Part shown: positions 26,076 through 60,558 of the stretch, in pieces
Position numbering within the stretch: position 1 is the stretch's first letter
Layout: each line of letters starts with the position of its first letter
Assembly (NCBI GenBank): GCA_964612055.1
Contig: CAZTBI010000001.1
Coordinates: 5,688-69,687 of the forward strand
Direction of reading: 5' to 3'
DNA length: 64,000 nucleotides
From: an uncultured Bdellovibrionales bacterium
Lineage (GTDB): Bacteria; Patescibacteriota; Minisyncoccia; Moranbacterales; UBA1568
The notes under the pieces: model-generated
What the model was told of the DNA's origin: nothing
The model's database searches: none
Seen by the model: only the letters and a program-made list of their open reading frames with translations
Position numbers and translations under genes: made by a program

Positions 26076-26081
26076 TCATTG

Positions 26082-26154
26082 TGCGCCCGGCAAGAATCGG
26101 ACTTACGACCTTCTGGACCGCAACCAGACGCTCTATCCACTGAGCTACGGGCGC
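26082..26154 (-). tRNA. tRNA-Arg (anticodon GCG)
   Basis: acceptor GCGCCCG/CGGGCGC, stem TCTGG/CCAGA, loop TTGCGGT; T-loop TCCGATT. Confidence 0.75.
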
Positions 26155-26166
26155 AACGCGGCACCC

Positions 26167-26736: not shown

Positions 26737-26836
26737 AGGGTAATATTGATTTTCTTTACTATACCATATTTTTACTGAAAACAGATACTCTTCACAAAGG
26801 CAGGCATGCCTGATACCATGACGAGGTAGAAAATTT

Positions 26837-26923
26837 GGAAGCGTGGCCGAGTGGTTGAAGGCAACAGTCTTGAAAACTGTCGTACCCGAAAGGGTATCGT
26901 GAGTTCGAATCTCACCGCTTCCG
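26837..26923 (+). tRNA. tRNA-Ser (anticodon TGA)
   Basis: GGAAGCG-TG-GCC-GAGTGGTTGAAGGC...CTTGAAA...long variable arm...GTGAG-TTCGAAT-CTCAC-CGCTTCC-G. Confidence 0.85.
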
Positions 26924-26930
26924 CTGTTGA

Positions 26931-35060: not shown

Positions 35061-35072
35061 AAATATCTTACG

Positions 35073-37374: not shown

Positions 37375-38490
37375 TTAATCAAAAGAAAAGAAGCGTTTGA
37401 TTTTTGCAAACACTGCCCCAATACTTTCTTTTACATGATCAGTCTTGCTTTTGACGTCGTTGCTAGATCCTGTTTCCGTGTCTGAAACTCTTTTTTTATT
37501 ATCAGCACTTGCAGTATCTTTCTTTGGATTACTCGTAGTGAGTTCGGTCATATTTCGACTTTCCTGGCACTCAGGAGCCAGAGTTTCTCTGCAGGAGAGG
37601 GATAAATCAATAAAGCGTGTGACGTGGTCGAAAACAGTGAGCCCGGTCTCCTTCACCTTCCAGTTGTATACTCCATCACCAGCGAGGCCGTGACCAGAAC
37701 CAATAGCCGTTATTCTCTGGTAAGGGATATTGACGGCGGTTGCTTGGCTTACCAATCGATCCGACATTTCATAGGGTACGGTGGTGTCAGTTGTTCCATG
37801 AATGATGAGAACGTTGGCATCACCACGACTCATGTGCTGCTTGTTCCCTGGTATACCACCCGATATTTCAATGATACCGATCGGGTTTTCCTTTTTGTTG
37901 AAGACATAGTCAGCAAGATAGGCCATGTTGATAGCCGTGAAAGCACCAGCTGAACCGCCCTGGATAAACCAGCGGGTGTCAATTTTCCCTGCAAACTGTT
38001 TCTGTACAAATTCCTTGGCTTTGATGGTATCTTCCAGAGCGACCAGTGCGCCATACGTCTGTTCCGGTCTCCCGCCTTCCTCTGTGAATTCGGTGACGAA
38101 TGCCTGTGCTGCATCTTCGCTCAATGACTCGATTACGGGTTTTTTGTTTTTCTCTACAAGTCGATAATCTATAGCAAAGACAGCGTAACCTGCCTCTGCA
38201 AAGCGAATCTTGTTTTCCACGCCGGACGATCTGCTTCCATGAAGAAAGCCTCCTCCGTGAATCTGACCTATAGGAATAGGGAGCTTATCGGAGCCGTTTT
38301 TACAGTTTGTTGGTAAGTAGGCGTCTAAGTACAAAGGTACTGTTGTAGTATTGTTTCCCTCTTGAATAACCCCATCACCATACTTGATGTCTTTTGTAAT
38401 GGTGTAAGAGCATTCGTCGCTCGCATGAGCGGCTCTCAAGGGAAGGAGTGCTGCGATAATAAGAAGAAAAAAGACCTTTTTCATACACAA
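37375..38490 (-). CDS. secreted alpha/beta hydrolase (carboxylesterase/lipase)
   Basis: signal peptide; HGGGF oxyanion hole; GGSAGA nucleophile elbow. Confidence 0.7.
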   Translation of the reverse strand: MCMKKVFFLLIIAALLPLRAAHASDECSYTITKDIKYGDGVIQEGNNTTTVPLYLDAYLPTNCKNGSDKLPIPIGQIHGGGFLHGSRSSGVENKIRFAEAGYAVFAIDYRLVEKNKKPVIESLSEDAAQAFVTEFTEEGGRPEQTYGALVALEDTIKAKEFVQKQFAGKIDTRWFIQGGSAGAFTAINMAYLADYVFNKKENPIGIIEISGGIPGNKQHMSRGDANVLIIHGTTDTTVPYEMSDRLVSQATAVNIPYQRITAIGSGHGLAGDGVYNWKVKETGLTVFDHVTRFIDLSLSCRETLAPECQESRNMTELTTSNPKKDTASADNKKRVSDTETGSSNDVKSKTDHVKESIGAVFAKIKRFFSFD

Positions 38491-38543: not shown

Positions 38544-39293
38544 CTAGCGGGCCAAAACAATGCCAAAAACAGCCTTGGCACCATGTCTCTTAAGAAGGGT
38601 AGCACACTCTTCGAGGGTCGTGCCAGTGGTGGCGACGTCATCGATGAGCCACAGGTATTTTCCTCGAATGAGGGCTTCTTTTCCTGCTGCGAGAGCAAAG
38701 GCGCCTTTCAGATTCATCAGACGTTCTTCACGAGAGGTTGTTTTCATTTGTGGCTTGGTGTAACGAATGCGTAGGAGAATATCATTGGAGAGCGGAATTT
38801 CTAGACCCGGCGTCAGACCTAAGGAGAGTTCTCGAGCGATCAGTTCAGATTGGTTGAAACCACGGAAACGTAAGCGTTTTTTATGGAGCGGAACAGGAAT
38901 GAGCAAGTCGGGGAGTCGCAGAGGACTTTTCTCCAGAGCGTTCTTCAGGATATTTCCGAATGGAACCGAGAGGTGAGGGATAAAACGGTACTTGTACGTG
39001 TGGAGGGCATGCGCAAAGAGCGGTTCCTTGTAGTAGGAAGCGACGAAGATGCCATCGAGCGCTGGTTTCCTTTTGTCACGACAAGCAAAACAAACCTCTC
39101 CAGTGGGAGTGATATGCCGGAGGCAGACAGGACAGTACTGCTCGGTTCGAAGCATGATTCGGTGTTCGCAGACGCTACATATCCAGGCGCCTTTGGTACG
39201 GCAACCCAAGCAACGGAGCGGAAAGAGGGTATCGAGAATCTGTTTCTCGACCCCTTGGAGAAAAGAGGAAAATGTTTCGTGATTTAGGCGCAC
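38544..39293 (-). CDS. comF: ComF family protein (PRTase domain with Zn-finger)
   Basis: CxxC...CxxC N-terminus and LIDDVATTGTT PRPP motif; GTG start. Confidence 0.75.
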   Translation of the reverse strand: MRLNHETFSSFLQGVEKQILDTLFPLRCLGCRTKGAWICSVCEHRIMLRTEQYCPVCLRHITPTGEVCFACRDKRKPALDGIFVASYYKEPLFAHALHTYKYRFIPHLSVPFGNILKNALEKSPLRLPDLLIPVPLHKKRLRFRGFNQSELIARELSLGLTPGLEIPLSNDILLRIRYTKPQMKTTSREERLMNLKGAFALAAGKEALIRGKYLWLIDDVATTGTTLEECATLLKRHGAKAVFGIVLAR

Positions 39294-41764
39294 AAAACGG
39301 TATCACCTTTGAGAGAGAGACGGAGAGACTTCTTTTTCGGGAGAGTGAGGAGCTTCTTGGCGATTGGTTTTTCGACAAGGTCCTGAACATTTTTTCGTAC
39401 CAAGCGAGCGCCTTGTTCTGGGGCAAAGCTTTTCTTTCCGATGAAGGAGGGGATATTTTTTCCGTAAGTGAGGGCGATACCTTTCTCTTTGAGTCTTTTC
39501 TTCAAAGTATCGAGTTCGAGGGTGGCAATATGCTCGATAGCTGTGGCAGAGAGAGGATTGAAGACGATCACTTGGTCGAGTCGAGCCAGGAGTTCTGGGC
39601 GGATTTCTTTCTTCAATTCTCCCAAGACTTCACGTTTGATATTTTCAAATTGTTCGCTCATATTTTTCTTCCCCAGTTCTTTCTCGAAGCCGATGCGGGC
39701 TTCTCTGGTGAAAGCGGCGGTACCGATGTTTGAGGTGAGAATGATAAGCGTGTTTTTGAAGCTGACACTGCGCCCTTCGGCGTCAGTCAGCGTGCCTTCA
39801 TCCAAGATTTGTAGGAGAATATTCCAGACATCGGGGTGTGCTTTCTCAATTTCATCAAAGAGAACGACGCTATAGGGTTTGCGGCGGATGATTTCGGTCA
39901 ACTTGCCACCTTCACCATGGCCGACATAGCCTGCTGGAGCGCCCAAGATCTGGGCGACACTGTGGCGCTCCATGAATTCACTCATATCGAGACGAACGAG
40001 TGCTTGTTTACTTCCGAAAAACTCTTCGGCCAGCAGTTTCCCGATGAAGGTCTTGCCGACGCCGGTCGGTCCGAGGAAGAGGAAAGAGCCTAAGGGGCGA
40101 TCAGGGTCCCCGATATTACTGACCGAGCGGATCAGCGTCTCTTCGAGTGCGGTAGCGGCCTCTTGTTGTCCGACTAAGCGCTTTTCGAAGGCTTCATGGA
40201 GTCGGGTTAGTTTTTCCCCTGGATTTTCTGCCGAGAGTTTCTCAAAAGGAATGCCCGTCATGTGGGAAATGGTGCGGTAGATATGCTCCTCAGTCACTAC
40301 CTTGGTATCGAGGAGTGATTCTTCGTGATGCTTCTTTTTCAGCTGGGCGATCTTTTTCTCAAGCTCCTTTTCTCGAGCGTACCATTTGGCGGCATCATCG
40401 TAATTCTCGTGCTTCGTCAAGGATTCTTTCAGTGAGACACTCGCGCGGAGCTCTTCTTCGAGTTGGAAGAGAGCGGTAGCAAAGGGTGACTTATTTTTGC
40501 CTTGTTTCGCCAGAGCCGAGGCTTCATCGATGATATCAAAGGCTTTGTCAGGAAAGAAGCGGTCAGGAATGTGACGGAGAGAAAGGTCAACAGCGAGATC
40601 GATGATGGTGCCTGAGAGCGTGACATTGTGGAAGGTTTCGTAGCTTGCTTTGACCTGAGAGAGAATATGCTTGGTTTCTTCGAGGGTTGGTTCGGCAACG
40701 AGGAGCGACTGGAAACGTCGATCAAGGGCCGGATCCTTCTCTATGTGGCGTTTGTACTCGGAAAGGGTGGTGGCACCAATACACTGGATATCGCCACGGG
40801 AGAGGGCTGGTTTCAGGATATTGGCTGCATCCAGACCGCCGCTCGTGTTGCCTGCGCCGACGATCGTGTGAATTTCATCAATAAAGAGGATGACATCGGT
40901 ATTTTGTGTGGCTTCTTTGATGATTTCCTTCAGGCGAGCTTCGAATTCGCCACGGAAATTGGTGCCAGCAACAACCAGAGTAAGATCAAGTGACAAAATG
41001 CGCTTCCCAAAAAGGGTATGTGGGACATCGCCACGGGAAATTTTCTTGGCCAGCGCCGCTACCAGGGCCGTCTTGCCGACACCAGGCTCACCAATCAAAA
41101 GCGGATTGTTCTTATTTTTTCTGGTCAGTATTTGTACCATGCGGTCGAGCTCGGCCTTGCGTCCGACAAGAACATTTTCTTTGACAGAAGCATCTTTTCC
41201 CATATCGAGGGTAAATTGATCGAGCGAAGGCGTCGCTTTGCCGCCTTTTTTAGGATTTTCTTCAGTCAGGATATCTGGTGCGTCGAACATTTTGGAAAGT
41301 TGTGGAAAATGATCAAAGTTGAGGTGAGCTTCGATAACAGACTGAATCTTCTTTTCTTTGATTTTGAGTGCCAAGAGAATGTCATCGAGTCGATCACTCC
41401 TCATTTCGAGGAGGGCATAGACGAGATGTTCGGTGCCGACGTAAGGATAGTGGAATTCACTGGCGAGGGAGTAGGCGCGGCGTAAACTGTCCTTCAAAAG
41501 GGGTGAGAGGGGAAGAGGGTGAGTTTTTGGGAGAATCTTGCCGCCGACTTTTTTCTTGAGACACGATTTGGCGAGGGTTTCTTTTTCAAAACCAATATTT
41601 TCGAGCAAAATACTCCCGAGACTGCCATTTTCGAGGAAAATAGCGAGGAGCAAGTGCTCAGGCTCGATGGTAGTGTGCCGAGTATAGTGAGCAATTTCAC
41701 GAGCCTCTTTCAGGCTATGACGGGCGTGGAGGGTCAATTTCTGGCTAAAAGTAGTTTCGAGCAT
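39284..41764 (-). CDS. Clp/Hsp100 AAA+ chaperone (ClpC/ClpB-like)
   Basis: Clp_N repeats and two AAA modules (GEPGVGKT and GPTGVGKT Walker A). Confidence 0.85.
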
Positions 41765-48584: not shown

Positions 48585-48965
48585 ATGAAAAAAACATTGA
48601 AAGGATTTACGCTGATTGAACTTTTGATCGTTATCGCCATTATTGGTATTTTGGCATCGATCGTGTTGGTAAGTTTGAGCGGTGCTCGTGTAAAGGCTCA
48701 AAAAGCAGCATTTAAAGCTGAAGTAGCTGGCGCGACTGCTGGTCTTAATATCGGGTGTGATGATGCTGATACTGTTACATTTGTAGAACCGGCTGATACT
48801 GCAACAACAGACTGGGCTGCTTTTACGGGCACTCCAAGCTGTGGAGCGGCAGGTGATGGTACGTTCTCTATCGACGCTGTGCCTTTGGCAGCTGGTGTTA
48901 TTGCGGATGGCTGTACTGGAGCAACAGTAACAGAAACAGGTGCTGATTTTACAAATTGTCCATAA
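48585..48965 (+). CDS. type IV major pilin
   Basis: AAGGAGGTGA RBS; class III signal MKKTLKG|[17 protein letters not shown]; two Cys near C-terminus. Confidence 0.8.
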
Positions 48966-49002
48966 TCTCTCGTATCATTTAAATCAAAGGGAGGTGAATC
49001 TT

Positions 49003-49362
49003 ATGAAAAAAACATTAAAAGGATTTACGCTGATTGAACTCTTGATCGTTATCGCGATCATCGGTATTTTGGCGTCGATCGTGTTGGTAAGCTTGAGCAG
49101 CGCTCGAGGTAAGGCTCAGTTGGCAGCATTTAAAGCTGAAACAGCTGGTGCTGTGGCTGGACTTCTTATTGTATGTGATACAGGCAATATTACGCTCCCA
49201 AACGATACTACAACTACGAATTGGGGGGCAATAACTAACCAGAGTTGTGGTCCAACAAGAGGTGGTGGATTTAACGTTACAGCAACCCCGATTAATGCGG
49301 GTATTGTCTGTAATGCTACAGTGAGTGGTACTGGAACCACGTACGTTGGAGCAGGATGTTAG
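49003..49362 (+). CDS. type IV major pilin paralog
   Basis: AAAGGGAGGTGA RBS; N-terminal about 50 aa nearly identical to the upstream pilin, C-terminal divergent. Confidence 0.8.
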
Positions 49363-49380
49363 TGTCTTGCAATAAAGCTT

Positions 49381-49415
49381 TTAAAACAAGGGCGTAATGC
49401 CCTTGTTTTATCTTA
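49381..49415 (+). terminator. intrinsic terminator after pilin pair
   Basis: ACAAGGGC-GTAAT-GCCCTTGT followed by TTTATCTT. Confidence 0.7.
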
Positions 49416-49517
49416 TAGATCACGCTTCAGTACTTAATGTTCGTTGTTCAAGAGACGGGTCTATGGTATTCTAAGAGTACTAATACTCCCTTTAACGGGT
49501 AGTTTATTTTTAGTATT

Positions 49518-51191
49518 ATGACCATACCAAGGGTACTCTCCCAGAGTCTGGGAAGAATTTATCGGCTGTTCGTATCGAGTACTGCCCTTAGGTTTTTTTT
49601 TGTTTTTATTTTTTTCTGCCTCTTTTTTTCGTTTTACCTCTTTTTCTATACTTTCACCTCTACTGATGACCAATTCTTCAATGTAAGATTGGCGCAAAAA
49701 ATCAGCGTCGAGGGGCTTAGTATTCTTCAAAACTTCAATGAATTTTCTGAAGTAACTGCCCGTCCATGGGTTTTTAATATTCTTTTTTATTATCTCCTTA
49801 TTCCTTTTACGTGGTTTTATCCTCTTGAACTAGGGATTAAGGTCTTTGCTGTAACTAGCTTGGCGTTTACATTTACCGTCATCTTCTTTTTTCTTGAAAA
49901 AAATAATATTAAAAAGTCGTTTCTTTGGTTGTTATTAGCTGTTGGTTTTTTCTTTACCCCTCCTGATCTCTGGCATTTTTTAATGGCACGTGCCTTTGTA
50001 TTGGTGCCAGCTTTACTTATCCTCCTTCTCTATTTTTTACAAATAAAGAATTATGGAGCTCTTTTTTTTCTATCCTTCCTTTCTTTTTTTCTCCACACAG
50101 CAACTTTCTTTTTGCCGCTGGTAGTAGGAATAATCTTTTGCGTTTTTTCTTGGCAAAGTACAAGACGTTCAGTATTGTTTTCGTTGTTGAGTGTTGTAGG
50201 CGGAACTGCCGCAGCGCTTCTTCTTGGCGCTCTTTTTATCCCGGGTTTTCTTCCCATTGTGTGGAATTTCTGGGATTCTCTTTATAGAATTGTAGTATCT
50301 TTTCATGTATCAAGTTTCGTGCAAATTGATGAAGGAATGGAAAGTTATCCGACGACGTTGTTTGATATTTTTTCACAGCACGCGATTTTGATCGCGCTTC
50401 TTATCATGTTCACCGGTTCGTACGTAGCACGTATTTTTGAGGCGAATCGAAGAAGGGTATCTTTTGGAAATCCTGTGCAGCTCACCTTGATGGCGCTTTC
50501 CATTCTTTTTTTATTGGGATCATTTATTACTAAGCGTAACCTGGATTTTTTCTTCGTCTTTTCTAGTCTATTTCTGCTGCTGGCTCTCTCTGAATTCTTT
50601 GAAACTATAAAATTCAATGTAAAAAGAATACATATTTTTTCTTTAGGGGTGGTTATTTTCGTGGCTCTCGCCTCTCAATTGTTGGCTATTATGGATATGC
50701 TTGCTGTCTCTTCTGATTATGCAAGTATCAAAGGAGCCGCTCAATGGGCGAAAGAGCATACAGAAAAAGGCAGCGTGGTCTTCAATCCTACGATGAATTT
50801 TTTTCCAACATTTTATTTCTATAATGAGGGTCATAATAAGATGATTGTCGGTATTGAGCCGCGAGATTTTTATCAGACCAATTCAAGGAAATACTGGCTC
50901 TGGTATAACCTCTCTGCTTATGGAGTGATTTGCGGAGAGCAAAAGTGCGCTAGAGAAACTGCTTTGCGTGACGCGATGCTACAATCTTATAAAGACCAAT
51001 GGTACAAGGAAAACGGAGAAAGAGTGAGGGATCTTCTTCTGAATGAATTTTCAACGAACTTGATACTTGTAAGGCCTGATTTTATTGCTTTACAGCCATT
51101 GTTGCAAAACAGTCCTTCATTTGAAGAGGTCTACGCTACGCCGATAACGAAAACATATACTCTGTATCGTATAAAAGAAATTGATAAATAA
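49518..51191 (+). CDS. GT-C-fold-like polytopic membrane protein (ArnT/PMT/TfpW-like glycosyltransferase candidate)
   Basis: about 12-13 TM N-terminal domain plus about 130-aa soluble C-terminal domain. Confidence 0.4.
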   Translation: MTIPRVLSQSLGRIYRLFVSSTALRFFFVFIFFCLFFSFYLFFYTFTSTDDQFFNVRLAQKISVEGLSILQNFNEFSEVTARPWVFNILFYYLLIPFTWFYPLELGIKVFAVTSLAFTFTVIFFFLEKNNIKKSFLWLLLAVGFFFTPPDLWHFLMARAFVLVPALLILLLYFLQIKNYGALFFLSFLSFFLHTATFFLPLVVGIIFCVFSWQSTRRSVLFSLLSVVGGTAAALLLGALFIPGFLPIVWNFWDSLYRIVVSFHVSSFVQIDEGMESYPTTLFDIFSQHAILIALLIMFTGSYVARIFEANRRRVSFGNPVQLTLMALSILFLLGSFITKRNLDFFFVFSSLFLLLALSEFFETIKFNVKRIHIFSLGVVIFVALASQLLAIMDMLAVSSDYASIKGAAQWAKEHTEKGSVVFNPTMNFFPTFYFYNEGHNKMIVGIEPRDFYQTNSRKYWLWYNLSAYGVICGEQKCARETALRDAMLQSYKDQWYKENGERVRDLLLNEFSTNLILVRPDFIALQPLLQNSPSFEEVYATPITKTYTLYRIKEIDK

Positions 51192-51194
51192 TGT

Positions 51195-52235
51195 ATGGAT
51201 TCTCAGTTACGTATTATCGTGATTGGAGGTGGATGGGTAACCGAGAATAGGCATTTGCCTGCTTTAAGAAAAGAGAGGCGTATCTTGCTTCAGTCTGTAA
51301 TAAGCAAGAATGTCGATCGGGCTGAATTTCTCAAAAAGAAATTTTCTGCCAAGACATATTTTGGCGGGGATGGAGTGGATTTCTCACAGGTACTCCAAGG
51401 TTGTGATGCGGTAGTGATAGGATCGGACCCATTTTCTCATTATGAAATTGCCAAACAAGCCATTGCTTTAGGTAAGCATGTTTTAATGGAAAAACCGCTG
51501 ACGTTGTCGGTGGTAGAGTCGGCCGAATTGGTAGGGTTAGCTAAAGAGAAAAAGATACGTTTTGCGGTGGTGCATAATTTCCAGTTTTCCCAATCAGCCT
51601 CTGCTCTGAAAGAAGATATAGAGAAGGGCAAACTCGGAGAGATCCGGTCTTTGGAGGCAAAGCAATATAGTAACGAGAAAAGAAGACTGCCAGTTTGGTA
51701 TGAGGATTTGCCCTGGGGTCTTTTTTATGATGAATCGCCGCATCTTTTGTATCTTCTTGAGATGGTAGGAGGAAAACAAAGCCTTCAACATTCTCAGGTG
51801 CTGTTTCGATCAGGGGTCACTACGCCTGTGTTGGTGGAAGGTCTTTTAATAGGTGAAACAGGAATACCTTCGGTGCTGAGTATGAACTTTTCTGCTTCAC
51901 TTTCTGAATGGTTCCTTATTGTTCATGGATCAAAACGCACCGGTATACTTGATATTTTCCGGGATACTTACTTTTCTCTCCCAAATGACGGTAAACACAC
52001 GCCCAAGGATATTTTCCGGACTTCATGGCTCGTCTTTTTTGGGCATTTTACGGGAGTTGTAAAAAGTGGAATCAAGGTATTGAGAGGGGGCTATCTTTGC
52101 GGTAATGAAGAAGTGGTCAAGAGATTTGTTGATGCTGTTTTGGATAACAGGCCGCTGGGGACTCTGGATGCTGAAAACGGACTGCGGATAAACGCTTTGC
52201 AACATGAAATAATGGAGCGCTCATTTCATCTATAG
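51195..52235 (+). CDS. Gfo/Idh/MocA family NAD(P)-dependent oxidoreductase
   Basis: Rossmann IVIGGGWVTENRHLPAL and EKP motif. Confidence 0.8.
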   Translation: MDSQLRIIVIGGGWVTENRHLPALRKERRILLQSVISKNVDRAEFLKKKFSAKTYFGGDGVDFSQVLQGCDAVVIGSDPFSHYEIAKQAIALGKHVLMEKPLTLSVVESAELVGLAKEKKIRFAVVHNFQFSQSASALKEDIEKGKLGEIRSLEAKQYSNEKRRLPVWYEDLPWGLFYDESPHLLYLLEMVGGKQSLQHSQVLFRSGVTTPVLVEGLLIGETGIPSVLSMNFSASLSEWFLIVHGSKRTGILDIFRDTYFSLPNDGKHTPKDIFRTSWLVFFGHFTGVVKSGIKVLRGGYLCGNEEVVKRFVDAVLDNRPLGTLDAENGLRINALQHEIMERSFHL

Positions 52236-53380
52236 TGTCTATGCTTGCAACGAAAAAGAAGGTGTTGGTAGTGGCTACTCATTTTCCTCCCCACACAGGG
52301 GGAGTAGAAAAATACACCCTCGACTTTTTTTCAGTATTAGGACAGGAATATCGAAATCTCGACATCAGTATTCTTTCCCTGCAAACCGCCAAAGCACCAA
52401 AGCGTGAAAGGATAGGGGTGCTAAATGTGGTGAGGGTTCCATGTTTTGGATCAGATATTAATCCATTTTTTTCTCCTAAAAAAGTCCAGGGAGCTTTAGA
52501 GGACATGGATTTTTCTTCTTTCGATCTCGTCATTACCCAATGCCGGTATTATCTTTTCACTGGATACATGGTCTTTACAGCGCGGCGTAAAGGAATGCCT
52601 GTGTTGCACATCGAGCATAATGCCGGATACATGCTTCACAAGAACCCCCTCATTACTTTGATAGCGAGACTGTACGATGTTTTTATTGGTAGAAAAGTTT
52701 TGAGTAAGGCGACGTCTATTGTTGCGATTTCTGAGAGCGTGAAAAAATTTCTTAAAGAAAATTTCAAGATAACGGGTGCTATTGAAGTGATTCCTGGCGG
52801 CATACAGACAAAAGAGTGGGTCGGTTCAGAATCTCTTTCTGATACAAAAACGTTTGTGTATTGCGGAAGGCTTATTCGTGAAAAGGGCGTTTCGATCCTT
52901 TTGGAAGCATTCGAAATGTTGCAAAATAAGTATCCGGAAACTTCTCTCAAGATTCTGGGAGATGGTCCTGAGATGGGGCTTCTAAAAAGACAAGTTTTAG
53001 AAAAAAAATTGGAGAAACGGGTGGAGTTCTTTGGTGTAGTATCAAGCGATTTTATAAAGAATCTTTATAAAATAAAACCCGTCTTTGTCAATCCTTCATT
53101 CTATGCAGAAGGTTTTCAAATCGCTCTCTTAGAAGCAGTAGCGAGTGGATTACCGATTATTACTACTTCAGTCGGCGGGGCAGGGGAATTGCTCGAAGCA
53201 AATAGGAGTGCCCTTTTTGTTGTTTCTCGGGATAAAAAATCTCTTTTTTATGCCATGGAAGAGTATTTGCTTTTTCCACAAAAAGCAGATACGTATAGCT
53301 CTGTCGCTTCACGGAAGGTGAAGGAATATTTTTCGCAAGAGAAAATGGTTGAAAAGTTCTACCGATATGTTTTTTCATAG
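52235..53380 (+). CDS. family-4 glycosyltransferase (GT-B)
   Basis: EGFQIALLEAVASGLPIITTSVGG (E-X7-E motif). Confidence 0.8.
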   Translation: MSMLATKKKVLVVATHFPPHTGGVEKYTLDFFSVLGQEYRNLDISILSLQTAKAPKRERIGVLNVVRVPCFGSDINPFFSPKKVQGALEDMDFSSFDLVITQCRYYLFTGYMVFTARRKGMPVLHIEHNAGYMLHKNPLITLIARLYDVFIGRKVLSKATSIVAISESVKKFLKENFKITGAIEVIPGGIQTKEWVGSESLSDTKTFVYCGRLIREKGVSILLEAFEMLQNKYPETSLKILGDGPEMGLLKRQVLEKKLEKRVEFFGVVSSDFIKNLYKIKPVFVNPSFYAEGFQIALLEAVASGLPIITTSVGGAGELLEANRSALFVVSRDKKSLFYAMEEYLLFPQKADTYSSVASRKVKEYFSQEKMVEKFYRYVFS

Positions 53381-53756
53381 AAATCTTCAATTTTTTCGTT
53401 TTGTTGTAATCGGAGGTTTTTCTTATGGATTAAGTCTTCTCTTTTTGATATTTTTGATAGAAATTCTTGCCCTTCCTTACCTTGTAGCAACAGCACTTGT
53501 CTTTTTTGGTATCAACGGTTTAAGCTTTTTTATGAATAAGAGGTATACTTTTTTATTAACAGGGGGTCTTTTCCAAACAGAGCTTCTTCGATATTATGGA
53601 ATCATGCTTCTCAGCTTGATTCTGAATTTGGCTGGAATGTATATGTTGGTAGGGATTCTGCAGTTTTCTATAGTCGTAGCGAGTATAATTGTGTCAGGCG
53701 TTCTTTTATTTTTTAACTATTTTTTTCATAAAAATTTTACTTTTCGTACCAAATAA
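53367..53756 (+). CDS. GtrA family protein
   Basis: four TM; FFRFVVIGGFSYGLSL; overlaps the GT4 stop. Confidence 0.6.
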   Translation: MFFHRNLQFFRFVVIGGFSYGLSLLFLIFLIEILALPYLVATALVFFGINGLSFFMNKRYTFLLTGGLFQTELLRYYGIMLLSLILNLAGMYMLVGILQFSIVVASIIVSGVLLFFNYFFHKNFTFRTK

Positions 53757-53760
53757 TTTT

Positions 53761-54510
53761 ATGGCTCAGTACGATATTTTCTTTCAGAACGAACATCCAA
53801 AAATAGCTCAGAGATTTTTAACCTGGCTGAATTTTTCTTTGTTTCAGTTTCTTAAAAGGAACATTGTTTCTAAAGAAGCAAGCAAGGTGCGTATCTTGGA
53901 GATCGGTCCTGGGAAAGGATACTTTTACCAAGCAATATCGAAAGCAAAAAATGTTTCTTATGTGGCATGTGACCGAAACATTTCTTTCCGTCAATCTTTT
54001 CCAGAAGCTGAATTTTACCTTGCTACAGCGCCTTCCTTTCCTGAAAACATCGGTACTTTCGACATGATTTACGCATCTTATGTAGTGGAGCATCTGAGTG
54101 ATGGATTGGCTGTGGCAGAACTTCTCCGCGGTTGTCTGAAACACCTCAATCCTGGTGGGATTGTAGTTATAACTTGTCCAAATGCTTTGGCGCAGAAGTT
54201 TGAATTTTGGAATATGGATTATACCCATCGATATCCTACAACCGCACGAAATATACACATGGCTTTTTTAGAAGCCGGATTTTCTAGCACGGAGATATAT
54301 GAAATATCTGGATTGTTGACGTTCCCAGGCTTTACTTTCAGGCCATTTCAGTGGTGTCTCAAAGTGGTATTGTTTTTTTATCGTTACAGAGTGATGCATT
54401 TTTTCTTTGGCTGGATTTTGAAAAAGAAATTATACGAATTGAATAACTCTTTCTACCGATTATATTGTCTAGTAAAGCAGGAAAATTTACTGTGTATTGG
54501 TAAGAAATAA
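53761..54510 (+). CDS. class I SAM-dependent methyltransferase
   Basis: motif I LEIGPGKGY; ATG 53761 follows the GtrA stop. Confidence 0.7.
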   Translation: MAQYDIFFQNEHPKIAQRFLTWLNFSLFQFLKRNIVSKEASKVRILEIGPGKGYFYQAISKAKNVSYVACDRNISFRQSFPEAEFYLATAPSFPENIGTFDMIYASYVVEHLSDGLAVAELLRGCLKHLNPGGIVVITCPNALAQKFEFWNMDYTHRYPTTARNIHMAFLEAGFSSTEIYEISGLLTFPGFTFRPFQWCLKVVLFFYRYRVMHFFFGWILKKKLYELNNSFYRLYCLVKQENLLCIGKK

Positions 54511-54514
54511 AACT

Positions 54515-55660
54515 ATGACAGAAGTTTCTGTTGTTATTCCTTGCTTGAATGAGGCAAAAACTTTGCCTATCGTTATTGATATGGCCAAAAGCGGCCTGTC
54601 GAAAGTTTCGCTTTCTGGAGAAATAATGATCGCTGATAACGGTTCAGATGATGGTTCTCAGGTTTTGGCGGAATCACTTGGTGCCCGGGTGGTTCCTGTG
54701 AAGAACAGGGGGTATGGCAATGCTCTTGCCACGGGAATTCTTGCTGCAGAAGGAAAGTATATTATCTTTGCTGATGCCGATGGTTCATATGACTTCAGTC
54801 AGCTTCCTGTCTTTATTGAGGCTTTACGAAAGGGCGCCGATCTTGTTATTGGCAATCGCTTTGCAAGGAAGATGGAGAGAGGTGCTATGCCAGCGCTTCA
54901 TCGTTATCTTGGAACTCCTGTGCTTACTGCGCTTATCAATTTCTTTTTCAAAACAAAAATCTCTGATTGTAATTGTGGCATGCGGGGGATAAAAAAAGAG
55001 TCTTTTGAAAAAATGCAGATTCTTTCGACAGGCATGGAATTTGCTTCAGAAATGGTTATTAAGGCTGGATTACTCGGTATGAAAGTGGTAGAGGCACCGA
55101 TTTATTTTATGAAAGATAAAAGAGATAGAGAACCTCATCTGCGTACTTGGCATGATGGGTGGAGGCATCTGCGTCTCATTCTTATCTACGCCCCTAACTA
55201 CCTATTTATTTATCCAGGAAGCATCCTTTTTATTTCGGGAAGCATCCTACTTTTTATGCAGCTTTTTGGGCCGGTGATTATCGGACCGATGTATATGGAT
55301 CTTCATTTTATGATTCTTGGGCTTATGCTGAGTGTTCTAGGTCTTTCTATTTTTCTTATGGGAGCTACTATCAAGCAATTTTCTTATCAACACGACTACT
55401 ATTTGGAGGATTTTACCGTCACTTTTTTTGAAAGAAGTTCTTTTGAAAAGAAGCTTGTTCCAGGAACTCTTTTTTTCGCTATCGGGACAGGGTTGGCCGT
55501 GGGGATCTTTATTCGTTGGATTGGCGGTCATTTTGCCAATCCTAACATGCTGCGAGGAGCACTTTTTAGTCTCTACTTTATGTCTACTGGTTTGCTTGTT
55601 TCCCTTTTCTCTTTTCTTGAGCTTGTGATGAGAATACAGAACAAAGAAAAAAATAAATGA
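54515..55660 (+). CDS. polyprenyl-phosphate sugar synthase-like GT2 (DPM1/ArnC-like) with C-terminal TM domain
   Basis: VVIPCLNE, DNGSDDGS, D-x-D and four C-terminal TM helices. Confidence 0.8.
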   Translation: MTEVSVVIPCLNEAKTLPIVIDMAKSGLSKVSLSGEIMIADNGSDDGSQVLAESLGARVVPVKNRGYGNALATGILAAEGKYIIFADADGSYDFSQLPVFIEALRKGADLVIGNRFARKMERGAMPALHRYLGTPVLTALINFFFKTKISDCNCGMRGIKKESFEKMQILSTGMEFASEMVIKAGLLGMKVVEAPIYFMKDKRDREPHLRTWHDGWRHLRLILIYAPNYLFIYPGSILFISGSILLFMQLFGPVIIGPMYMDLHFMILGLMLSVLGLSIFLMGATIKQFSYQHDYYLEDFTVTFFERSSFEKKLVPGTLFFAIGTGLAVGIFIRWIGGHFANPNMLRGALFSLYFMSTGLLVSLFSFLELVMRIQNKEKNK

Positions 55661-55939
55661 TTTTTTCTTTGTTGCCGCTGGGGCCCTGCTCTAGGAGTCG
55701 CGTGCCTACAGAACATTGTTGATTTCGGTCTCCCTAGGGATTTCGAACCTAATCGGAACCGATCTTTTTAGAGGCTTCTTGGTGCAGGTGATAGCCATTT
55801 GGCGCTTTTTTTTCTAATGTTGGCAATACGCATCTGTGGTAACGGTATTTTGAACGTAACCGAGCTTTCTTTTGGATTTTTCTTAGTATATACTATGGAT
55901 GTATTTTATCTTTTTTAACCAATAACCTTTCAGAACGGT

Positions 55940-58900
55940 ATGTTGTACTCAGCGTTCGTTTCCCGCGCTGTTCTTGTTGTAACGTTTTCCTTGTTCGCCT
56001 TCTTTGCTGCTCCTTTTTTGGTATCTGCGGCTACCGAAGTATCTGGTCCTATCGATACAAATACCACGTGGACCAAAGCTAATGGTCCGTATGTGGTCAC
56101 TGGTCTGGTGACGGTGGAGAAGGGCGTGACGCTTACTATTAAACCGGGCGCGGTGGTGAAAGTGCAACAAGCAGGCGGAGGCTTTTACAACGGCCTTACT
56201 GTTAAAGGGAAATTGAATGCTACGGGTACCGCTACGGCCCGTATTTCTTTTACTGCTTATACTGATGATTCCGTAGGGGGCGATACGAACGGTGACGGAT
56301 CAGGAACGTCCCCAGCGCCTGGTTATTGGACAGAAATCCGTGTAGCGAGCAAGGGCATAGCGAATTTGCGCTATGCCAATGTCCGTTATGCAGGGAGTAC
56401 ATCAGAAGATGGAAAATCAAACGGCCTGCGTAATGATGGAGGGACGCTATTGTTTGAAAATGGAACCTTGGAATATAACGAGAATTACAGTCTTTATCAC
56501 TCGGGCGGTACGAGTACTGTTGCATCAAGTAAGGTACGCAATCATAATATAGCTATCTCTGTGCAGAATCCCTTTGTTTCCGTGACGGGATCGGAGTTTT
56601 CTGGAAACCAACAGGTGTTCGATATCGGTCCTGGTGGAAATGCTTGGATTTCTGAATCAGGTAACACTATTGTAGATGGTCAAAGGGGATATATATCTAT
56701 CCCCGGAGCCAATATTACGAGTGATACGACCTGGCAAGGAAGTAGCTTTCCCTATGTCATTTCCGGTACTGTCGTTGTCAATCAAGGCGCTACTCTTACC
56801 ATGAACCCGGGCGTGATTATCAAGGGAAGAATCAACAACTCCCTTTTCATGATACAAGGTACCCTTCTGGCTCTCGGGACTGCCGAAGCCCCTATCATTT
56901 TTACTGCTGCCAATGATGATGCCGCTGGAGGGGATACGGATGGCGACGGCGGCATTCCGGAAGCGGGATACTGGAAAGGGATTCGCGTGGAACCCACCGG
57001 TACTGCTAGGTTCGATCATACAGCTGTTCGTTACGCGGGAGGGTATGAGTACGCATATACTGAATTCTCGAACCTTATCAATCAGGGCGGTACCCTTGAG
57101 TTTACCAACTCAGAGACTTCTTTTGCTAGTCAAAATGGTATCAAGCACAATGCTGGAACGACGACGGTGGCGGGGAGTAACCTGGCACATACTCCAGTAG
57201 GTGTTTATATCACTGCTCCTTTTGTTTCCGTGACTGACTCGGTATTTGATACTACTCCAACAGCCATAAGTGTTGCTGGCGGTGATTACTCCTCAGATAT
57301 TTTTACAGCATCGGGTAATACATATGTCGGGAACCAGGTTCCTATTATTGAGATATCTAGCATGAATGTTGTCGGGAATGTTACATGGGGAAGTAGCTTT
57401 CCCTATGTCATTTCCGGTACTGTCGTTGTCAATCAAGGCGCTACTCTTACCATGAACCCGGGCGTGATTATCAAGGGAAGAATCAACAACTCCCTTTTCA
57501 TGATACAAGGTACCCTTCTGGCTCTCGGGACTGCCGAAGCCCCTATCATTTTTACTGCTGCCAATGATGATGCCGCTGGAGGGGATACGGATGGCGACGG
57601 CGGCATTCCGGAAGCGGGATACTGGAAAGGGATTCGCGTGGAACCCACCGGTACTGCTAGGTTCGATCATACAGCTGTTCGTTACGCGGGAGGGTATGAG
57701 TACGCATATACTGAATTCTCGAACCTTATCAATCAGGGCGGTACCCTTGAGTTTACCAACTCAGAGACTTCTTTTGCTAGTCAAAATGGTATCAAGCACA
57801 ATGCTGGAACGACGACGGTGGCGGGGAGTAATTTAACCAATAACGGCGCTTACGGGATAGAGAGTTCTTTGTTCTCATCTAATATCGATGCGCGTAATAA
57901 CTGGTGGGGAAGTCCGTCCGGACCATATCATGCAACAAAAAATCCTGATGGTACTGGTAATGGAATATCGGGTCGTGTCAGTTTTCAGCCTTGGGCTATG
58001 GCACCATTTGATATCGGCTTGTCTTGCGTTGTTGGTACTAAGGGCTGTTACTCCAATGTTCTCTTTCTTCCAGGTATTATGGGGAGCAATCTGTATCAGT
58101 CAGATGAAGAGAAGTGTTGGTTACAGGATATGAACCATGTTGGAGATACTGACTATGATTGTGTAAGGATGAGTAGCGCTGACACTCCGAACACTTCCGG
58201 GCTGCGTACGAAAAATTTAGTATCTTACGATGGGTTGGCGGCTCCCTATCAAGCGATAGAAGATGCTATGAAGGGGTGGCAAACGGAATTGGGTATCGCG
58301 GCGATTACCACTCCGTATGATTGGCGTTATGATTTCGATCACACTGTACGAAGTGGTACCGTGGAGGGTAATGGATATATTTCCTATGAAGACACGGTCA
58401 GTAAGGGGTATATCGAAAAAGAACTTCGGGCGCTGGCAGCGAATTCAAAAACTGGAAAAGTAACAGTAGTAGCGCATTCCATGGGTGGACTAGTAGCCAA
58501 AGAGCTGTTTTCAAAGATCGGGAGTAGTGAGACGGCTCGTCTAGTTGATAAGTTTATTTTGATTGCTTCGCCGCAACTTGGAACCCCCAAGGCAGTAGCT
58601 GCGCTGCTTCATGGTACGGACATGGCGTTAGGGAGTATTTTTTGGACTCTTGTTACGGACGCTCAAGCGCGAGGACTTTCTCATGACATGCAAAGCGCTT
58701 ATAATCTACTTCCCTCACAGGAGTATCTGGATTCTCTGGAGCGTGATGGGAATGGCGTACCATATGATCCGGCAGTGAGATTCTCGAATGAAAACGGTTA
58801 TTTCGACCGTATGATCGGAGATTATGGTGACAATATTGTTGATCGGACGAAACTTGCTGGGTTTATGTCGGATGGCCAGTGGAGCGGTACATCATTCAAT

Positions 58901-59725
58901 GATACGAAAACTCCATGGCAAGCGATACGGACGATGTCTGATGATGCGGAAGTTACACATAGCGCACTTGATAGTTGGAAGCCGCCAAAAGGAGTGAAGT
59001 TTACAACTCTTGCTGGGTGGGGGATGGATACGATATCTACCTTACAGTACGCAGAACATGAGGAAGATAATGAAGAGGTAATTGAAATGAGTCCTCAGCA
59101 TGTCGTTGATGGTGACGAGACCGTGGTGACTGGAAGTGCCTTGTATTCGAGCAACAGGAGTGATGTAGAACGGTATTGGTTGGATCTTCCGAGTGCTGGT
59201 GGTCAGACTCACTCAAAAATTTTTGATGTCCCGTCACTTCGTACCTTCATCCACAACAAAATTACTGGCGAGCCTGTGAACTCTCTCGATTACATCTATA
59301 CTTCCCGGCCGTCAGATTCTCAGATCAAACGTCTTCATTTCGTTCTGCATTCGCCACTGACACTCGGGTTCCGTGATGATCAAGGTCGCTATACCGGTAA
59401 GACAATCGATGGTAAAGTAAAGCTAGAGATTCCCGGATCTCAATATGAACGCTATGGTGAAGTGCAATGGCTCTCTCTTCCGGTACAGACTATTGGTCAG
59501 CTTGAGCTTGTCGGGACGGCTGATGGAAAATTCACCCTTGAGGTAAGAGAGAAGCAGGGTAATACTCTCAAGAAACAGATCGATTTCGAACGAATTGCTT
59601 CGAGGAAGGATACGTTTGTCCGGATGCGTTTCGATGGAAAATCTGGGCCGGTCGTGACTGATGATCTGAAGCTGGAAATTGACCTGGATCATAATGGGGA
59701 ATTCCAATCTATTGGAGCAAATTAG
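55940..59725 (+). CDS. giant secreted beta-helix repeat protein with C-terminal alpha/beta-hydrolase (lipase-like) domain
   Basis: signal peptide; parallel beta-helix-like repeats (NxGxxxxF... pattern); AHSMGG nucleophile elbow. Confidence 0.6.
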   Translation: MLYSAFVSRAVLVVTFSLFAFFAAPFLVSAATEVSGPIDTNTTWTKANGPYVVTGLVTVEKGVTLTIKPGAVVKVQQAGGGFYNGLTVKGKLNATGTATARISFTAYTDDSVGGDTNGDGSGTSPAPGYWTEIRVASKGIANLRYANVRYAGSTSEDGKSNGLRNDGGTLLFENGTLEYNENYSLYHSGGTSTVASSKVRNHNIAISVQNPFVSVTGSEFSGNQQVFDIGPGGNAWISESGNTIVDGQRGYISIPGANITSDTTWQGSSFPYVISGTVVVNQGATLTMNPGVIIKGRINNSLFMIQGTLLALGTAEAPIIFTAANDDAAGGDTDGDGGIPEAGYWKGIRVEPTGTARFDHTAVRYAGGYEYAYTEFSNLINQGGTLEFTNSETSFASQNGIKHNAGTTTVAGSNLAHTPVGVYITAPFVSVTDSVFDTTPTAISVAGGDYSSDIFTASGNTYVGNQVPIIEISSMNVVGNVTWGSSFPYVISGTVVVNQGATLTMNPGVIIKGRINNSLFMIQGTLLALGTAEAPIIFTAANDDAAGGDTDGDGGIPEAGYWKGIRVEPTGTARFDHTAVRYAGGYEYAYTEFSNLINQGGTLEFTNSETSFASQNGIKHNAGTTTVAGSNLTNNGAYGIESSLFSSNIDARNNWWGSPSGPYHATKNPDGTGNGISGRVSFQPWAMAPFDIGLSCVVGTKGCYSNVLFLPGIMGSNLYQSDEEKCWLQDMNHVGDTDYDCVRMSSADTPNTSGLRTKNLVSYDGLAAPYQAIEDAMKGWQTELGIAAITTPYDWRYDFDHTVRSGTVEGNGYISYEDTVSKGYIEKELRALAANSKTGKVTVVAHSMGGLVAKELFSKIGSSETARLVDKFILIASPQLGTPKAVAALLHGTDMALGSIFWTLVTDAQARGLSHDMQSAYNLLPSQEYLDSLERDGNGVPYDPAVRFSNENGYFDRMIGDYGDNIVDRTKLAGFMSDGQWSGTSFNDTKTPWQAIRTMSDDAEVTHSALDSWKPPKGVKFTTLAGWGMDTISTLQYAEHEEDNEEVIEMSPQHVVDGDETVVTGSALYSSNRSDVERYWLDLPSAGGQTHSKIFDVPSLRTFIHNKITGEPVNSLDYIYTSRPSDSQIKRLHFVLHSPLTLGFRDDQGRYTGKTIDGKVKLEIPGSQYERYGEVQWLSLPVQTIGQLELVGTADGKFTLEVREKQGNTLKKQIDFERIASRKDTFVRMRFDGKSGPVVTDDLKLEIDLDHNGEFQSIGAN
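56741..57833 (+). repeat. 442-bp perfect direct repeat (56741-57182 and 57392-57833), period 651 bp, in frame inside the giant gene
   Basis: identical nucleotide strings including GGAAGTAGCTTTCCCTATGTCATTTCC...GTGGCGGGGAGTAA. Confidence 0.85.
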
Positions 59726-59760
59726 GCCTTCCTCTCCTCTTTTTGTGATATACTAGAGGT

Positions 59761-60558
59761 ATGCATATATTTCTTTTTTTCATTCTCGGACTGGCAGTCG
59801 GGAGTTTTCTCAATGTTTTAGTCTATCGTTTGAAGGATGGTGAGACATTGGGTGGGCGTTCCTACTGTCGACACTGCAAGCATCAGATTCGCTGGTATGA
59901 TAACGTGCCGCTTCTGAGTTTTCTTGTTCTTGGGGGAAAGTGTCGTGATTGCAAAGAGCGACTTTCTTGGCAGTATCCACTCCTTGAGGCAGCGACAGGT
60001 ATTGGTTTTGTATTGGTAGGAAACTTCTTCTTTGTGCTTGAGGATCAAATGACGTGGATTGAAACTGGGTGGCTTCTGGGTATTGTCGCCTTGTTTCTGG
60101 CTATTGCGGCTTATGACCTCATCAATATGGAAATCCCGCTGTCACTTCTGGTGGCGAGCGCTTTGTGGACAGGGGCATTTCTTCTTATGACGTTGTATAT
60201 GGAGCCATTGCCGAGAGAGTTGTGGTGGGAAGCTCGTCTGGCGCAAGGTGTGCTTGGTGGTGGTGTGATAGCGCTTTTTTTCTTTGCTCTGGTGTACGCT
60301 TCCAAGGAAACATGGATGGGATGGGGAGATGTCTGGCTCGGTGGGGTGGCAGGGATGATTGTAGGACTACCGGCAGCACTTCTCATGCTGACGCTTTCTT
60401 TTGGCTTCGGTGCACTTTTTGGTCTCGGTATGATTGCGTTTCATAAGAAGGGGATGAAAAGTCAGATTCCTTTTGCTCCGTATTTGGTACTTGGTACTCT
60501 TCTGACGCTTTTTCTCCCGAAGATGCTTCCTCAATTGATAGGACAGATTTTGCTGTAG
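59761..60558 (+). CDS. pilD: prepilin peptidase/N-methyltransferase (A24 family)
   Basis: CxxC...CxxC zinc-binding tetracysteine and A24 TM core. Confidence 0.85.
   Translation: MHIFLFFILGLAVGSFLNVLVYRLKDGETLGGRSYCRHCKHQIRWYDNVPLLSFLVLGGKCRDCKERLSWQYPLLEAATGIGFVLVGNFFFVLEDQMTWIETGWLLGIVALFLAIAAYDLINMEIPLSLLVASALWTGAFLLMTLYMEPLPRELWWEARLAQGVLGGGVIALFFFALVYASKETWMGWGDVWLGGVAGMIVGLPAALLMLTLSFGFGALFGLGMIAFHKKGMKSQIPFAPYLVLGTLLTLFLPKMLPQLIGQILL

Follow-up and report, generated by a model that had tools for sequence, protein, structure and literature searches.

Much of bacterial diversity belongs to the candidate phyla radiation (CPR, or Patescibacteria). Lecithin:cholesterol acyltransferase (LCAT) and lysosomal phospholipase A2 (LPLA2), two enzymes related in fold to the protein described below, can both hydrolyse and transfer acyl groups, and Tli4, the immunity protein of the bacterial lipase Tle4, is a soluble periplasmic protein. 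CPR bacteria do not synthesize fatty acids or phospholipids and are rich in lysolipids, which a phospholipase A could generate (PMC7242380). According to a 2024 review, no mechanism of lipid acquisition, either by uptake or by breakdown, has been identified in CPR/Patescibacteria (PMC11665869). The idea that such bacteria secrete phospholipases is itself already published, a secreted phospholipase having been proposed for Vampirococcus (PMC8080830). Here we describe a gene encoding a 1261-amino acid (aa) protein in a 64,000-nucleotide stretch of contig CAZTBI010000001.1 (hereafter "the window"), which comes from a bacterium deposited as an uncultured member of the Bdellovibrionales and placed by GTDB in the Moranbacterales (Patescibacteriota). 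The protein has a predicted signal peptide, a region of beta-helix modules, an LCAT/LPLA2-type alpha/beta-hydrolase domain whose predicted catalytic triad is intact and invariant, and a C-terminal beta-sandwich; it belongs to a large and apparently Patescibacteria-specific family, and its gene lies in a type IV pilus (T4P) locus. It is best explained (probability about 0.6) as a Sec-exported, extracellular or surface-exposed modular enzyme that would cleave or transfer the acyl chains of phospholipids in foreign membranes.

The LCAT/LPLA2-type domain and its predicted catalytic triad

A preliminary description of this gene, made from the sequence, noted an alpha/beta-hydrolase region with a GxSxG nucleophile elbow and Asp and His residues downstream of it, and likened it to lipases of the PGAP1 and LCAT types. 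The LCAT half of this comparison stands and the PGAP1 half does not. The Pfam LCAT model (PF02450) matches aa 725-1062 over model positions 19-351 of 392 and scores 52.5 bits where 21 are required for gathering (E = 5.9e-14), whereas PGAP1 (PF07819) membership was rejected at 21.5 bits against a cut-off of 24.3; the matches of the PGAP1, DUF676 and generic alpha/beta-hydrolase models are confined to ∼50 residues at the nucleophile elbow, and none of them exceeds its cut-off. The domain carries the motifs LFLPGxxGS (aa 708-716), PYDWR (792-796), AHSMGG (845-850) and DGDETV (1057-1062). A phmmer search of the PDB sequences with the whole protein gave no match (E = 0.88), and only a family profile and a fold search reached LPLA2 and LCAT. 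The profile was built from an alignment (A1) in which aa 688-1261 are set against the corresponding segments of 25 homologs and in which the whole 574-aa stretch is conserved as a single unit; against the PDB sequences it recovers LPLA2, Tle4 and LCAT, and the PYDWR motif aligns with PYDWR. The AlphaFold2 (AF2) model of this C-terminal part has a predicted local distance difference test score (pLDDT) of 88.3 and a predicted template modelling score (pTM) of 0.90. Its best Foldseek match in the PDB is LPLA2 (4x92, E = 1.2e-14, template modelling (TM) score on the target 0.70), and human LCAT (E ∼1e-11) and Tle4 (E = 1.3e-11) are also found. The top five matches are all LPLA2 and LCAT (E 1e-14 to 1e-11, TM-score on the target 0.65-0.70, ∼455 columns), and ordinary lipases and the polyhydroxybutyrate (PHB) depolymerase PhaZ7 match far more weakly.

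The three residues of the putative triad can be placed one by one. In the column of Ser847 the LPLA2 structure 4x90 has AHSMG and the S165A mutant chain, 4x92, has AHAMG; since the mutant chain shows Ala exactly here, this column is that of the nucleophile, which in LCAT is Ser181. Asp1059 aligns with the second Asp of LPLA2 GDGDGTV (chain position 328), which we take to be the catalytic Asp327, the numbering being shifted by one. The alignment with the LPLA2 sequence ends before His1091, and the role of this residue as the triad base is suggested by its conservation and by its distance of 32 residues from Asp1059, presumably the same Asp-to-His spacing as in LPLA2 (327/359) and LCAT (345/377). 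All three residues are invariant among 84 family members from species-representative genomes, save where a sequence is incomplete. Thus the elbow and the Asp/His pair both hold up as parts of a predicted triad, every sequence and fold feature of the LCAT/LPLA2 family that was examined is present in the domain (the position of the His being a prediction), and it is very probable that the protein is an active secreted lipase or acyltransferase of the LCAT type.

Export signal, beta-helix region and beta-sandwich

The reading frame is open across 3,786 nt and agrees exactly, in its ends and in its 1261-aa product, with the preliminary description. An identical protein is present in NCBI (P0001, encoded on a 485,659-bp contig), and this and ∼3,300 cluster-level relatives at E<=1e-30 establish, far beyond chance, that the gene is real. 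The N-terminus (MLYSAFVSRAVLVVTFSLFAFFAAPFLVSA, followed by ATEV) has the n/h/c layout of a Sec-type signal peptide: the n-region is basic, the core is hydrophobic, and a VSA motif of the cleavage type follows. This core is the sole transmembrane-like hydrophobic 19-mer of the protein, and the mature N-termini of homologs start at the equivalent ATEVSG/TPVSG, so the protein is predicted, as proposed earlier, to be exported, with cleavage at the site given in Table 1. The N-terminus has no lipobox Cys, and the protein has no match to the Pfam N_methyl model of the prepilin (class III) N-methylation motif, which the adjacent pilins do match; no NCBIfam family model matches it. Promoter and terminator scans gave counts not above those of shuffled sequence, and found none in the 279-bp gap upstream of the gene.

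A repeat search and an offset scan show that aa 37-687 consist of a 217-aa unit repeated in tandem three times, with a period of 651 nt (Tandem Repeats Finder, whose limit of 500 nt lies below this period, reported no repeat). Each unit has an acidic DDxxGGDT(N/D)GDG loop (aa 109-120, 326-337 and 543-554), possibly a calcium-binding element, and the NNWWGSPSGP...FQPW motif that caps the region is recognizable in homologs as NWWGxxxGPxxxxNxxGTG...P at the beta-helix end (alignment A2). The AF2 model of aa 31-692, made with 15 homologs (pLDDT 89.8, pTM 0.84), is all-beta and contains only short strands; the top 50 of its Foldseek matches in the PDB are without exception right-handed beta-helix proteins (Ag43, PL6 alginate lyases, tailspikes and NosD among them), and PF28492 (Beta_helix_4) is listed among the precomputed domains of the identical protein P0001. 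The beta-helix fold that had been suggested for the N-terminal part is therefore also the one that structure prediction gives. Modules of this 217-aa type with GGDTNGDG loops are common in secreted proteins of Planctomycetota, Bacteroidota and Chloroflexota. Their copy number varies among homologs of the protein, and 170-770 aa precede the enzyme module in relatives.

The beta-sandwich that follows the enzyme has an invariant HSP motif (aa 1137-1139; H450/S451/P452 in alignment A1) and a terminal D-x-D-x-N-G loop. By analogy with the accessory beta-sandwiches of other lipases, our guess is that it might bind membranes.

Table 1. Positions of the lipase gene, its parts and associated features (window numbering, except the partner genes, which are numbered within their own loci)
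Feature	Position	Strand	Basis or remark
Whole gene, predicted secreted beta-helix/LCAT-like lipase, 1261 aa	55940..59725	+	ORF list; ATG start; stop codon included
Sec-type signal peptide, aa 1-30, predicted cleavage between VSA and AT	55940..56029	+	read from sequence
Predicted beta-helix region, three 651-nt (217-aa) modules	56030..58000	+	651-nt repeat spacing, AF2 model, Foldseek, precomputed PF28492
Module 1	56048-56698	+	
Module 2	56699-57349	+	
Module 3	57350-58000	+	
Exact 443-nt repeat, copy 1, in module 2	56738..57180	+	identical to 57389-57831
Exact 443-nt repeat, copy 2, in module 3	57389..57831	+	identical to 56738-57180
NNWWGSPSGP...FQPW capping motif, aa 653-685, closes beta-helix region	57896..57994	+	kept in homologs
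LCAT/LPLA2-family alpha/beta-hydrolase domain, aa ∼705-1122	58052..59305	+	Pfam, AF2, Foldseek, profile-PDB alignment
Codon of Ser847, nucleophile	58478..58480	+	aligns with LPLA2 Ser165; Ser in 84/84 aligned relatives
Codon of Asp1059, triad acid	59114..59116	+	aligns with second Asp of LPLA2 GDGDGTV; 84/84 relatives
Codon of His1091, putative triad base	59210..59212	+	invariant in 83/83 aligned relatives
Family-specific beta-sandwich, aa ∼1123-1261	59306..59722	+	no Pfam match; strands E443-E572 of AF2 model
pilD (prepilin peptidase), 35 bp downstream of lipase gene	59761..60558	+	Pfam A24_N_bact and Peptidase_A24
Lineage-specific cargo, ∼10.4 kb, last pilin to pilD (557-aa GT-C-like, GFO, GT4, GtrA, methyltransferase, GT2, lipase)	49363..59760	+	
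Partner gene examples in relatives	L002:14581-14988; L003:14376-14756; L071:11933-12340		

The family and its four-helix partner

In a pattern scan with one genome per species, at least 366 of the 600 pattern matches examined encode a relative of the lipase, and an exhaustive profile search of 1.84 billion cluster representatives (50% identity) found 3,272 proteins at E<=1e-30; among these, the top 150 are covered over essentially the entire lipase-plus-sandwich module. The best 80 relatives from the pattern scan all come from Patescibacteria-type metagenome-assembled genomes (MAGs), including Kaiser-, Nomura-, Moran-, Zambryski-, Yonath- and Lloydbacteria and Paceibacterota, and some of them are labelled merely "bacterium", Saccharibacteria or Bdellovibrionales; in the sampled genomes the family is apparently confined to such MAGs. 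The full-length homologs that come next after P0001 are just 30-36% identical.

All-against-all clustering of the open reading frames (ORFs) that flank the family gene in 83 loci (up to 10 kb on each side) brought out one constant neighbour, a ∼138-aa protein with four predicted transmembrane helices. Loop 1 of this protein has two conserved Cys residues, and an EVFxxW motif with an invariant Trp follows the second helix. Its gene is on the same strand as the beta-helix/LCAT gene and directly downstream of it (median gap 11 bp), and with a profile search added it is present in 72-73 of 74 informative loci, nine of the 83 being cut at a contig end. It was not found in L084-L089 (loci that include close relatives of the window, discussed below), nor on the 485,659-bp contig among the best 120 of 352 database matches. 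No Pfam or NCBIfam model describes this partner family, and its members are named "hypothetical" in the databases except for one JGI "CsbA" label. The partner may serve self-protection, docking or product uptake. In some loci it is present as 2-4 tandem paralogs.

In locus L021 (13604-16369; L023 is alike) the full-length gene and its partner are followed by three short ORFs (193, 311 and 83 aa) whose products group with the large protein, and a further partner paralog comes after each of the first two; in this they recall polymorphic toxin loci with their arrays of orphan modules. In about nine of the 83 loci (L002:9203-9898, L003:9089-9718, L055, L065, L067, L083, L054, L029 and L080) there is a Y1_Tnp (IS200/RAYT-like) gene no more than ∼1.1 kb from the lipase/partner module, and in 11 there is one within 10 kb, a proximity which hints that the module is mobile. 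A GDSL lipase gene is also found near the family gene in L003.

Proposed function

Once the signal peptide is removed, the three beta-helix modules and the NNWWG...PW cap would form a rigid stalk or binding platform, and this would carry the LCAT/LPLA2-type serine hydrolase (Ser847-Asp1059-His1091) and the family-specific beta-sandwich. The enzyme would bind a lipid interface and act on the glycerophospholipids of a neighbour or host, cleaving or transferring their acyl chains; from LCAT/LPLA2 enzymology, the transfer would go by way of an acyl-Ser intermediate. The products, lysolipids and fatty acids, would leave the foreign membrane weakened and would supply lipid to a cell that is unable to make its own. 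We infer the substrate, the target membrane and the physiological role, in part from three published observations: the want of lipid synthesis in lysolipid-rich CPR cells (PMC7242380), the want of an identified acquisition mechanism (PMC11665869) and the phospholipase proposed for Vampirococcus (PMC8080830) together suggest that the substrate is likely to be a foreign membrane and that the cell is likely to gain lipid from it. Further support comes from the site of the gene, where the other cargo carried by relatives consists of cell-envelope hydrolases (CHAP and M23). The (phospho)lipase role against foreign membranes that was first suggested for the protein is reasonable for a predicted LCAT-type hydrolase with Ser, Asp and His in place, and it fits the literature just cited. 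The narrower proposal that the lipase damages the membranes of hosts or neighbours and/or harvests lipid from them is put forward tentatively, at a little under even odds.

Several points weigh against this explanation. Substrate specificity is not readable from the sequence, as LCAT-fold enzymes include both hydrolases and acyltransferases, and that the target membrane belongs to a host is something we infer. For the beta-helix part, the Foldseek matches are weak (E 2e-3 to 7e-2, TM-score ∼0.2), as is expected because the three modules are separately oriented, and the Pfam Beta_helix model (PF13229) reaches only E = 0.2 and 11.7 bits on the lipase. The window copy also departs from its relatives: it is without the 68-467-aa C-terminal extension found in every complete family member examined, and no homolog of the partner was found in the window (best hmmsearch E = 0.15), where pilD directly follows the lipase gene. 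Without partner and extension, the window copy may work differently from the family norm.

The alternative that survives best, although we consider it rather unlikely, is that the protein is a Tle-type interbacterial toxin that kills competitors or hosts by membrane damage, the four-helix neighbour being its immunity protein. Tle4 is among the best structural matches, the partner gene is nearly always directly downstream, and the tandem paralogs and the fragment-plus-partner arrays of L021 and L023 resemble orphan toxin/immunity modules. On the other hand, the window gene has no partner and yet its predicted triad is intact, not what one would expect if the enzyme were toxic to its own cell; the protein carries a Sec-type signal peptide, no type VI secretion system (T6SS) genes are present in the window or the inspected loci, and there is no T6SS or type VII secretion system (T7SS) context; and Tli4 is soluble and periplasmic, whereas the partner here has four transmembrane helices. 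In addition, partner divergence tracks the enzyme module and phylogeny (rho 0.50) and not the variable C-terminal extension, and no sign of polymorphic pairing with the variable C-terminus was seen. The extension and the partner were tried as a cognate co-varying pair, which was not supported (Spearman coefficient 0.12, falling to 0.04 as a partial correlation that controls for the enzyme module, with 33 of 300 permutations as high), and a strict Tle effector was rejected, there being no adjacent immunity-type gene in the window, a Sec signal and no T6SS genes. The toxin reading overlaps the preferred one, the deacylation of foreign membranes; it is favoured by the downstream gene of the family and weakened for the window copy.

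The pilus locus and its close relatives

The gene lies where the preliminary description put it, between pilins plus glycosylation genes on one side and pilD on the other. Upstream of it are pilM/N/O/B/T/C, two pilin genes, and genes for a GT-C-like membrane protein, a GFO oxidoreductase, a family 4 glycosyltransferase (GT4), GtrA, a methyltransferase and a family 2 glycosyltransferase (GT2); pilD is followed by four minor-pilin-like genes. The gap to pilD is 35 bp and a terminator scan found no terminator-like site in it, so that co-transcription of the lipase gene with pilD is possible.

PilD has much closer relatives than the lipase has (98, 94, 84, 71, 69 and 68% identity), and these reveal how the site between the pilins and pilD varies. 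Going by database names, the organism belongs to Candidatus Moranbacteria. L084 (PilD 98%) and L085 (94%) have partial lipase orthologs upstream of pilD, with 72% and 59.5% aa identity, respectively, both cut by contig ends inside or just past the repeats, and an additional M23-peptidase-like gene on the opposite strand between the lipase ortholog and pilD. In L086 (PilD 84%) the junction is occupied by CHAP/Lcl_C, DKNYY and M23-like genes and there is no lipase. In L087 and L088 (PilD 68-69%) the junction is empty, although the synteny is that of the window (clpB, pilMNOBTC, pilins, pilD, four minor pilins, ligA and gatCA). Because the pilins abut pilD directly in the last two and L086 has different cargo, the ∼10.4 kb of the window must be lineage-specific cargo in a variable slot; the site of the lipase gene is a lineage-specific insertion and not a conserved part of the T4P system. 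In the family at large, pilB/pilC lie within 10 kb of the family gene in three of the 83 loci (L040, L072 and L080), which by our estimate is about what chance would give in a genome of 0.5-1 Mb that carries one pilus locus or two, and family-level linkage to T4P was rejected on this count. Nor does the protein qualify as a T4P component, since it has no N_methyl match and, while found in L084 and L085, is absent from the pilus loci of L086-L088. The description of the protein as pilus-associated thus holds for gene position (in the window, L084 and L085) and is not supported for a functional link, and the co-occurrence with T4P loci of relatives that had been named as a test breaks down beyond the closest strains.

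These facts bear on the proposal that the protein is a pilus-coupled adhesin-lipase, carried on or delivered by the T4P, glycosylated by the products of the adjacent genes and acting where the pilus meets the host. For it speak the place of the gene just before pilD without a terminator found between them, the retention of this place in the two nearest relatives, the other envelope-degrading enzymes in the same slot of L086, and the dependence of episymbiosis on T4P in Saccharibacteria (PMC11623550). The arguments to the contrary are the Sec-type signal with no prepilin motif, the empty slot of L087 and L088, the three in 83 family loci with pilB/pilC nearby, and base composition: the G+C content at third codon positions (GC3) is 0.28-0.40 in the glycosylation genes, 0.47-0.56 in the core pil genes and 0.43 in the lipase gene, a contrast that suggests separate histories and acquisition of the glycosylation cassette and the lipase gene. 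We regard this proposal as improbable, a shade more so than the toxin, and any direct functional link to the pilus would be lineage-specific at best.

Some further features of the region may be recorded here. The glycosylation cassette (window 49518-55660) has a G+C content of 0.31-0.43; its first member, the 557-aa protein, has at least nine transmembrane segments and no Pfam or NCBIfam model and is GT-C-like by topology, the oxidoreductase is of the GFO/IDH/MocA type, and the GT2 has a C-terminal membrane part, so that the layout matches that of a GtrA/GtrB/GT-C-type surface glycosylation system, to judge from the predicted products. The two major-pilin-like ORFs, 48585-48965 and 48940-49362 (the latter with GTG as its start codon), overlap by 26 nt and have GC3 values of 0.28 and 0.36, respectively; L087 and L088 have three pilin-region genes where the window has two. 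The pilus operon is immediately preceded, on the other strand (38544-41764), by a ComFC-like gene (double zinc ribbon plus phosphoribosyltransferase) and clpB, and the clpB-pilM arrangement is kept in L087 and L088. Other hydrolases of the window are a GDSL lipase/acylhydrolase (27137-27760), two adjacent cellulase-type family 5 glycoside hydrolases (GH5; 33639-36488), a family 1 glycoside hydrolase (GH1; 19105-20502), a BD-FAE-type esterase (37375-38490) and an M23 peptidase (5952-6497). Nine tRNA genes lie at 6771-9386 and 25864-26924, including a His/Arg/Lys cluster (9126-9386) and an adjacent tRNA-Arg pair (25864-26154), and beyond tRNA an Rfam scan of the window found no family at gathering score.

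Other substrates and the internal repeat

Two other readings keep the enzyme and change its substrate. In the first it is an esterase or lipase that acts on non-membrane substrates such as PHB-type polyesters, waxes, acylated polysaccharides or lipoproteins, with the beta-helix binding the polymer. Beta-helix modules are typical of polysaccharide-active enzymes, PhaZ7 and true lipases are among the weaker structural matches, and the window encodes the GH5, GH1, GDSL and BD-FAE hydrolases listed above; but LPLA2 and LCAT match far better (E 1e-14 against 1e-3, TM-score 0.70) and the PYDWR and GDGTV motifs, specific to LCAT, are present, which leaves this reading with little to recommend it. Still less probable is a self-directed acyltransferase that would remodel the outer-leaflet lipids of its own cell, through acyl transfer or through lysolipids for membrane curvature. 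LCAT and LPLA2 do have transacylase activity, CPR membranes are lysolipid-rich (PMC7242380) and the family gene is coupled to a gene for a membrane protein, but a rigid stalk of 650 aa suggests action away from the producer's own membrane, and the window protein has no anchor.

Modules 2 and 3 share an exact 443-nt block, and module 1 is less alike, with ∼74% identity over a best-matching stretch of only 62 nt. The block is bordered on both sides by diverged sequence, which suggests gene conversion between modules rather than simple tandem duplication. Three independent Logan short-read assemblies (L090-L092, from three Sequence Read Archive runs of the same or a 98%-identical strain) all start at window position 57802, which is 30 nt inside the end of the repeat; a shared contig break at this point is what k-mer graph branching at a genuine repeat produces, so that the 443-nt repeat exists in the reads. 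The L084 ortholog begins within a 95%-identical repeat of its own with a 660-nt period, and exact internal repeats are present in the homolog P0074 too. The module copy number of the window gene rests on a single assembly. Among the samples that contain the window strain is SRR16481186, with a contig of 100% identity. That the duplication is a misassembly and the true gene shorter, disrupted or decaying, as the identity of two modules over 443 nt and the breaking of all short-read contigs of the window strain and of L084 within repeats might suggest, is very improbable in view of the open frame, the common break in three independent samples, the repeats of L084 and P0074 and the varying module numbers of homologs.

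Significance

In a non-exhaustive literature search for LCAT or PF02450 together with CPR we found no paper on a beta-helix/LCAT/beta-sandwich family, and neither the architecture of the family, nor its near-obligatory four-helix partner, nor the variable cargo slot between the pilins and pilD was found described. The family is a concrete and testable candidate for membrane attack or lipid harvest by lipid-auxotrophic CPR bacteria. A bolder and unlikely idea is that LCAT-like enzyme and four-helix partner make up a two-gene lipid-acquisition system of lipid-auxotrophic Patescibacteria, from which the lineage of the window recruited the enzyme into an attack slot of its pilus operon. If this is true, host membranes would be robbed of acyl chains or lysolipids by the enzyme, and the partner would import them or shield the membrane of the producer; the window lineage would then have lost partner and extension, and membrane attack would be coupled to pilus-mediated contact with the host. 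The slot itself, which in Moranbacteria collects secreted envelope-degrading enzymes (lipase, CHAP and M23) and a glycosylation cassette, should be useful for finding host-interaction genes in uncultivated episymbionts.

Comparison with known systems

Among described proteins, LPLA2 (PLA2G15, PDB 4x90-4x97) and LCAT (PDB 5bv7/5txf) are most similar to the enzyme module. They share with it the alpha/beta-hydrolase core with cap and membrane-binding subdomains and the motifs PGxxGxxL, PYDWR, AHSxG and GDGTV, and they are secreted interfacial enzymes, as the window protein is predicted to be. In spite of this likeness the identity is just 15-17%, the window protein is bacterial (Patescibacteria), it adds an N-terminal beta-helix of 650 aa and a C-terminal beta-sandwich, and the segment between its Ser and Asp is ∼50 residues longer. 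Tle4 (PA1510), a T6SS effector of Pseudomonas aeruginosa known in complex with Tli4 (PDB 4r1d), belongs to the same fold class (profile E = 1.1e-9); it too is a bacterial lipase directed against the membranes of others, and the gene linked downstream in family members recalls effector/immunity pairs. It differs in its export by the T6SS, where the window protein would use Sec, and in its soluble periplasmic partner, where the linked gene of the family encodes a four-helix membrane protein and the window copy has no linked gene.

The N-terminal part resembles beta-helix surface proteins (PF28492, NosD/CASH-type proteins, Ag43-type passengers and tailspikes), which provide rigid and often glycan-binding extracellular scaffolds; in the window protein the modules are tandem and partly identical and carry a lipase, and no lyase or hydrolase catalytic residues were identified in them. 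Closest in proposed biology is Vamp_34_196 of the CPR predator Vampirococcus lugosii (PMC8080830), a proposed secreted phospholipase that would break down the phospholipids of the host and so feed a cell which makes no lipids itself, a likeness drawn by description only; the paper on it describes no LCAT-type or beta-helix architecture and no four-helix partner.

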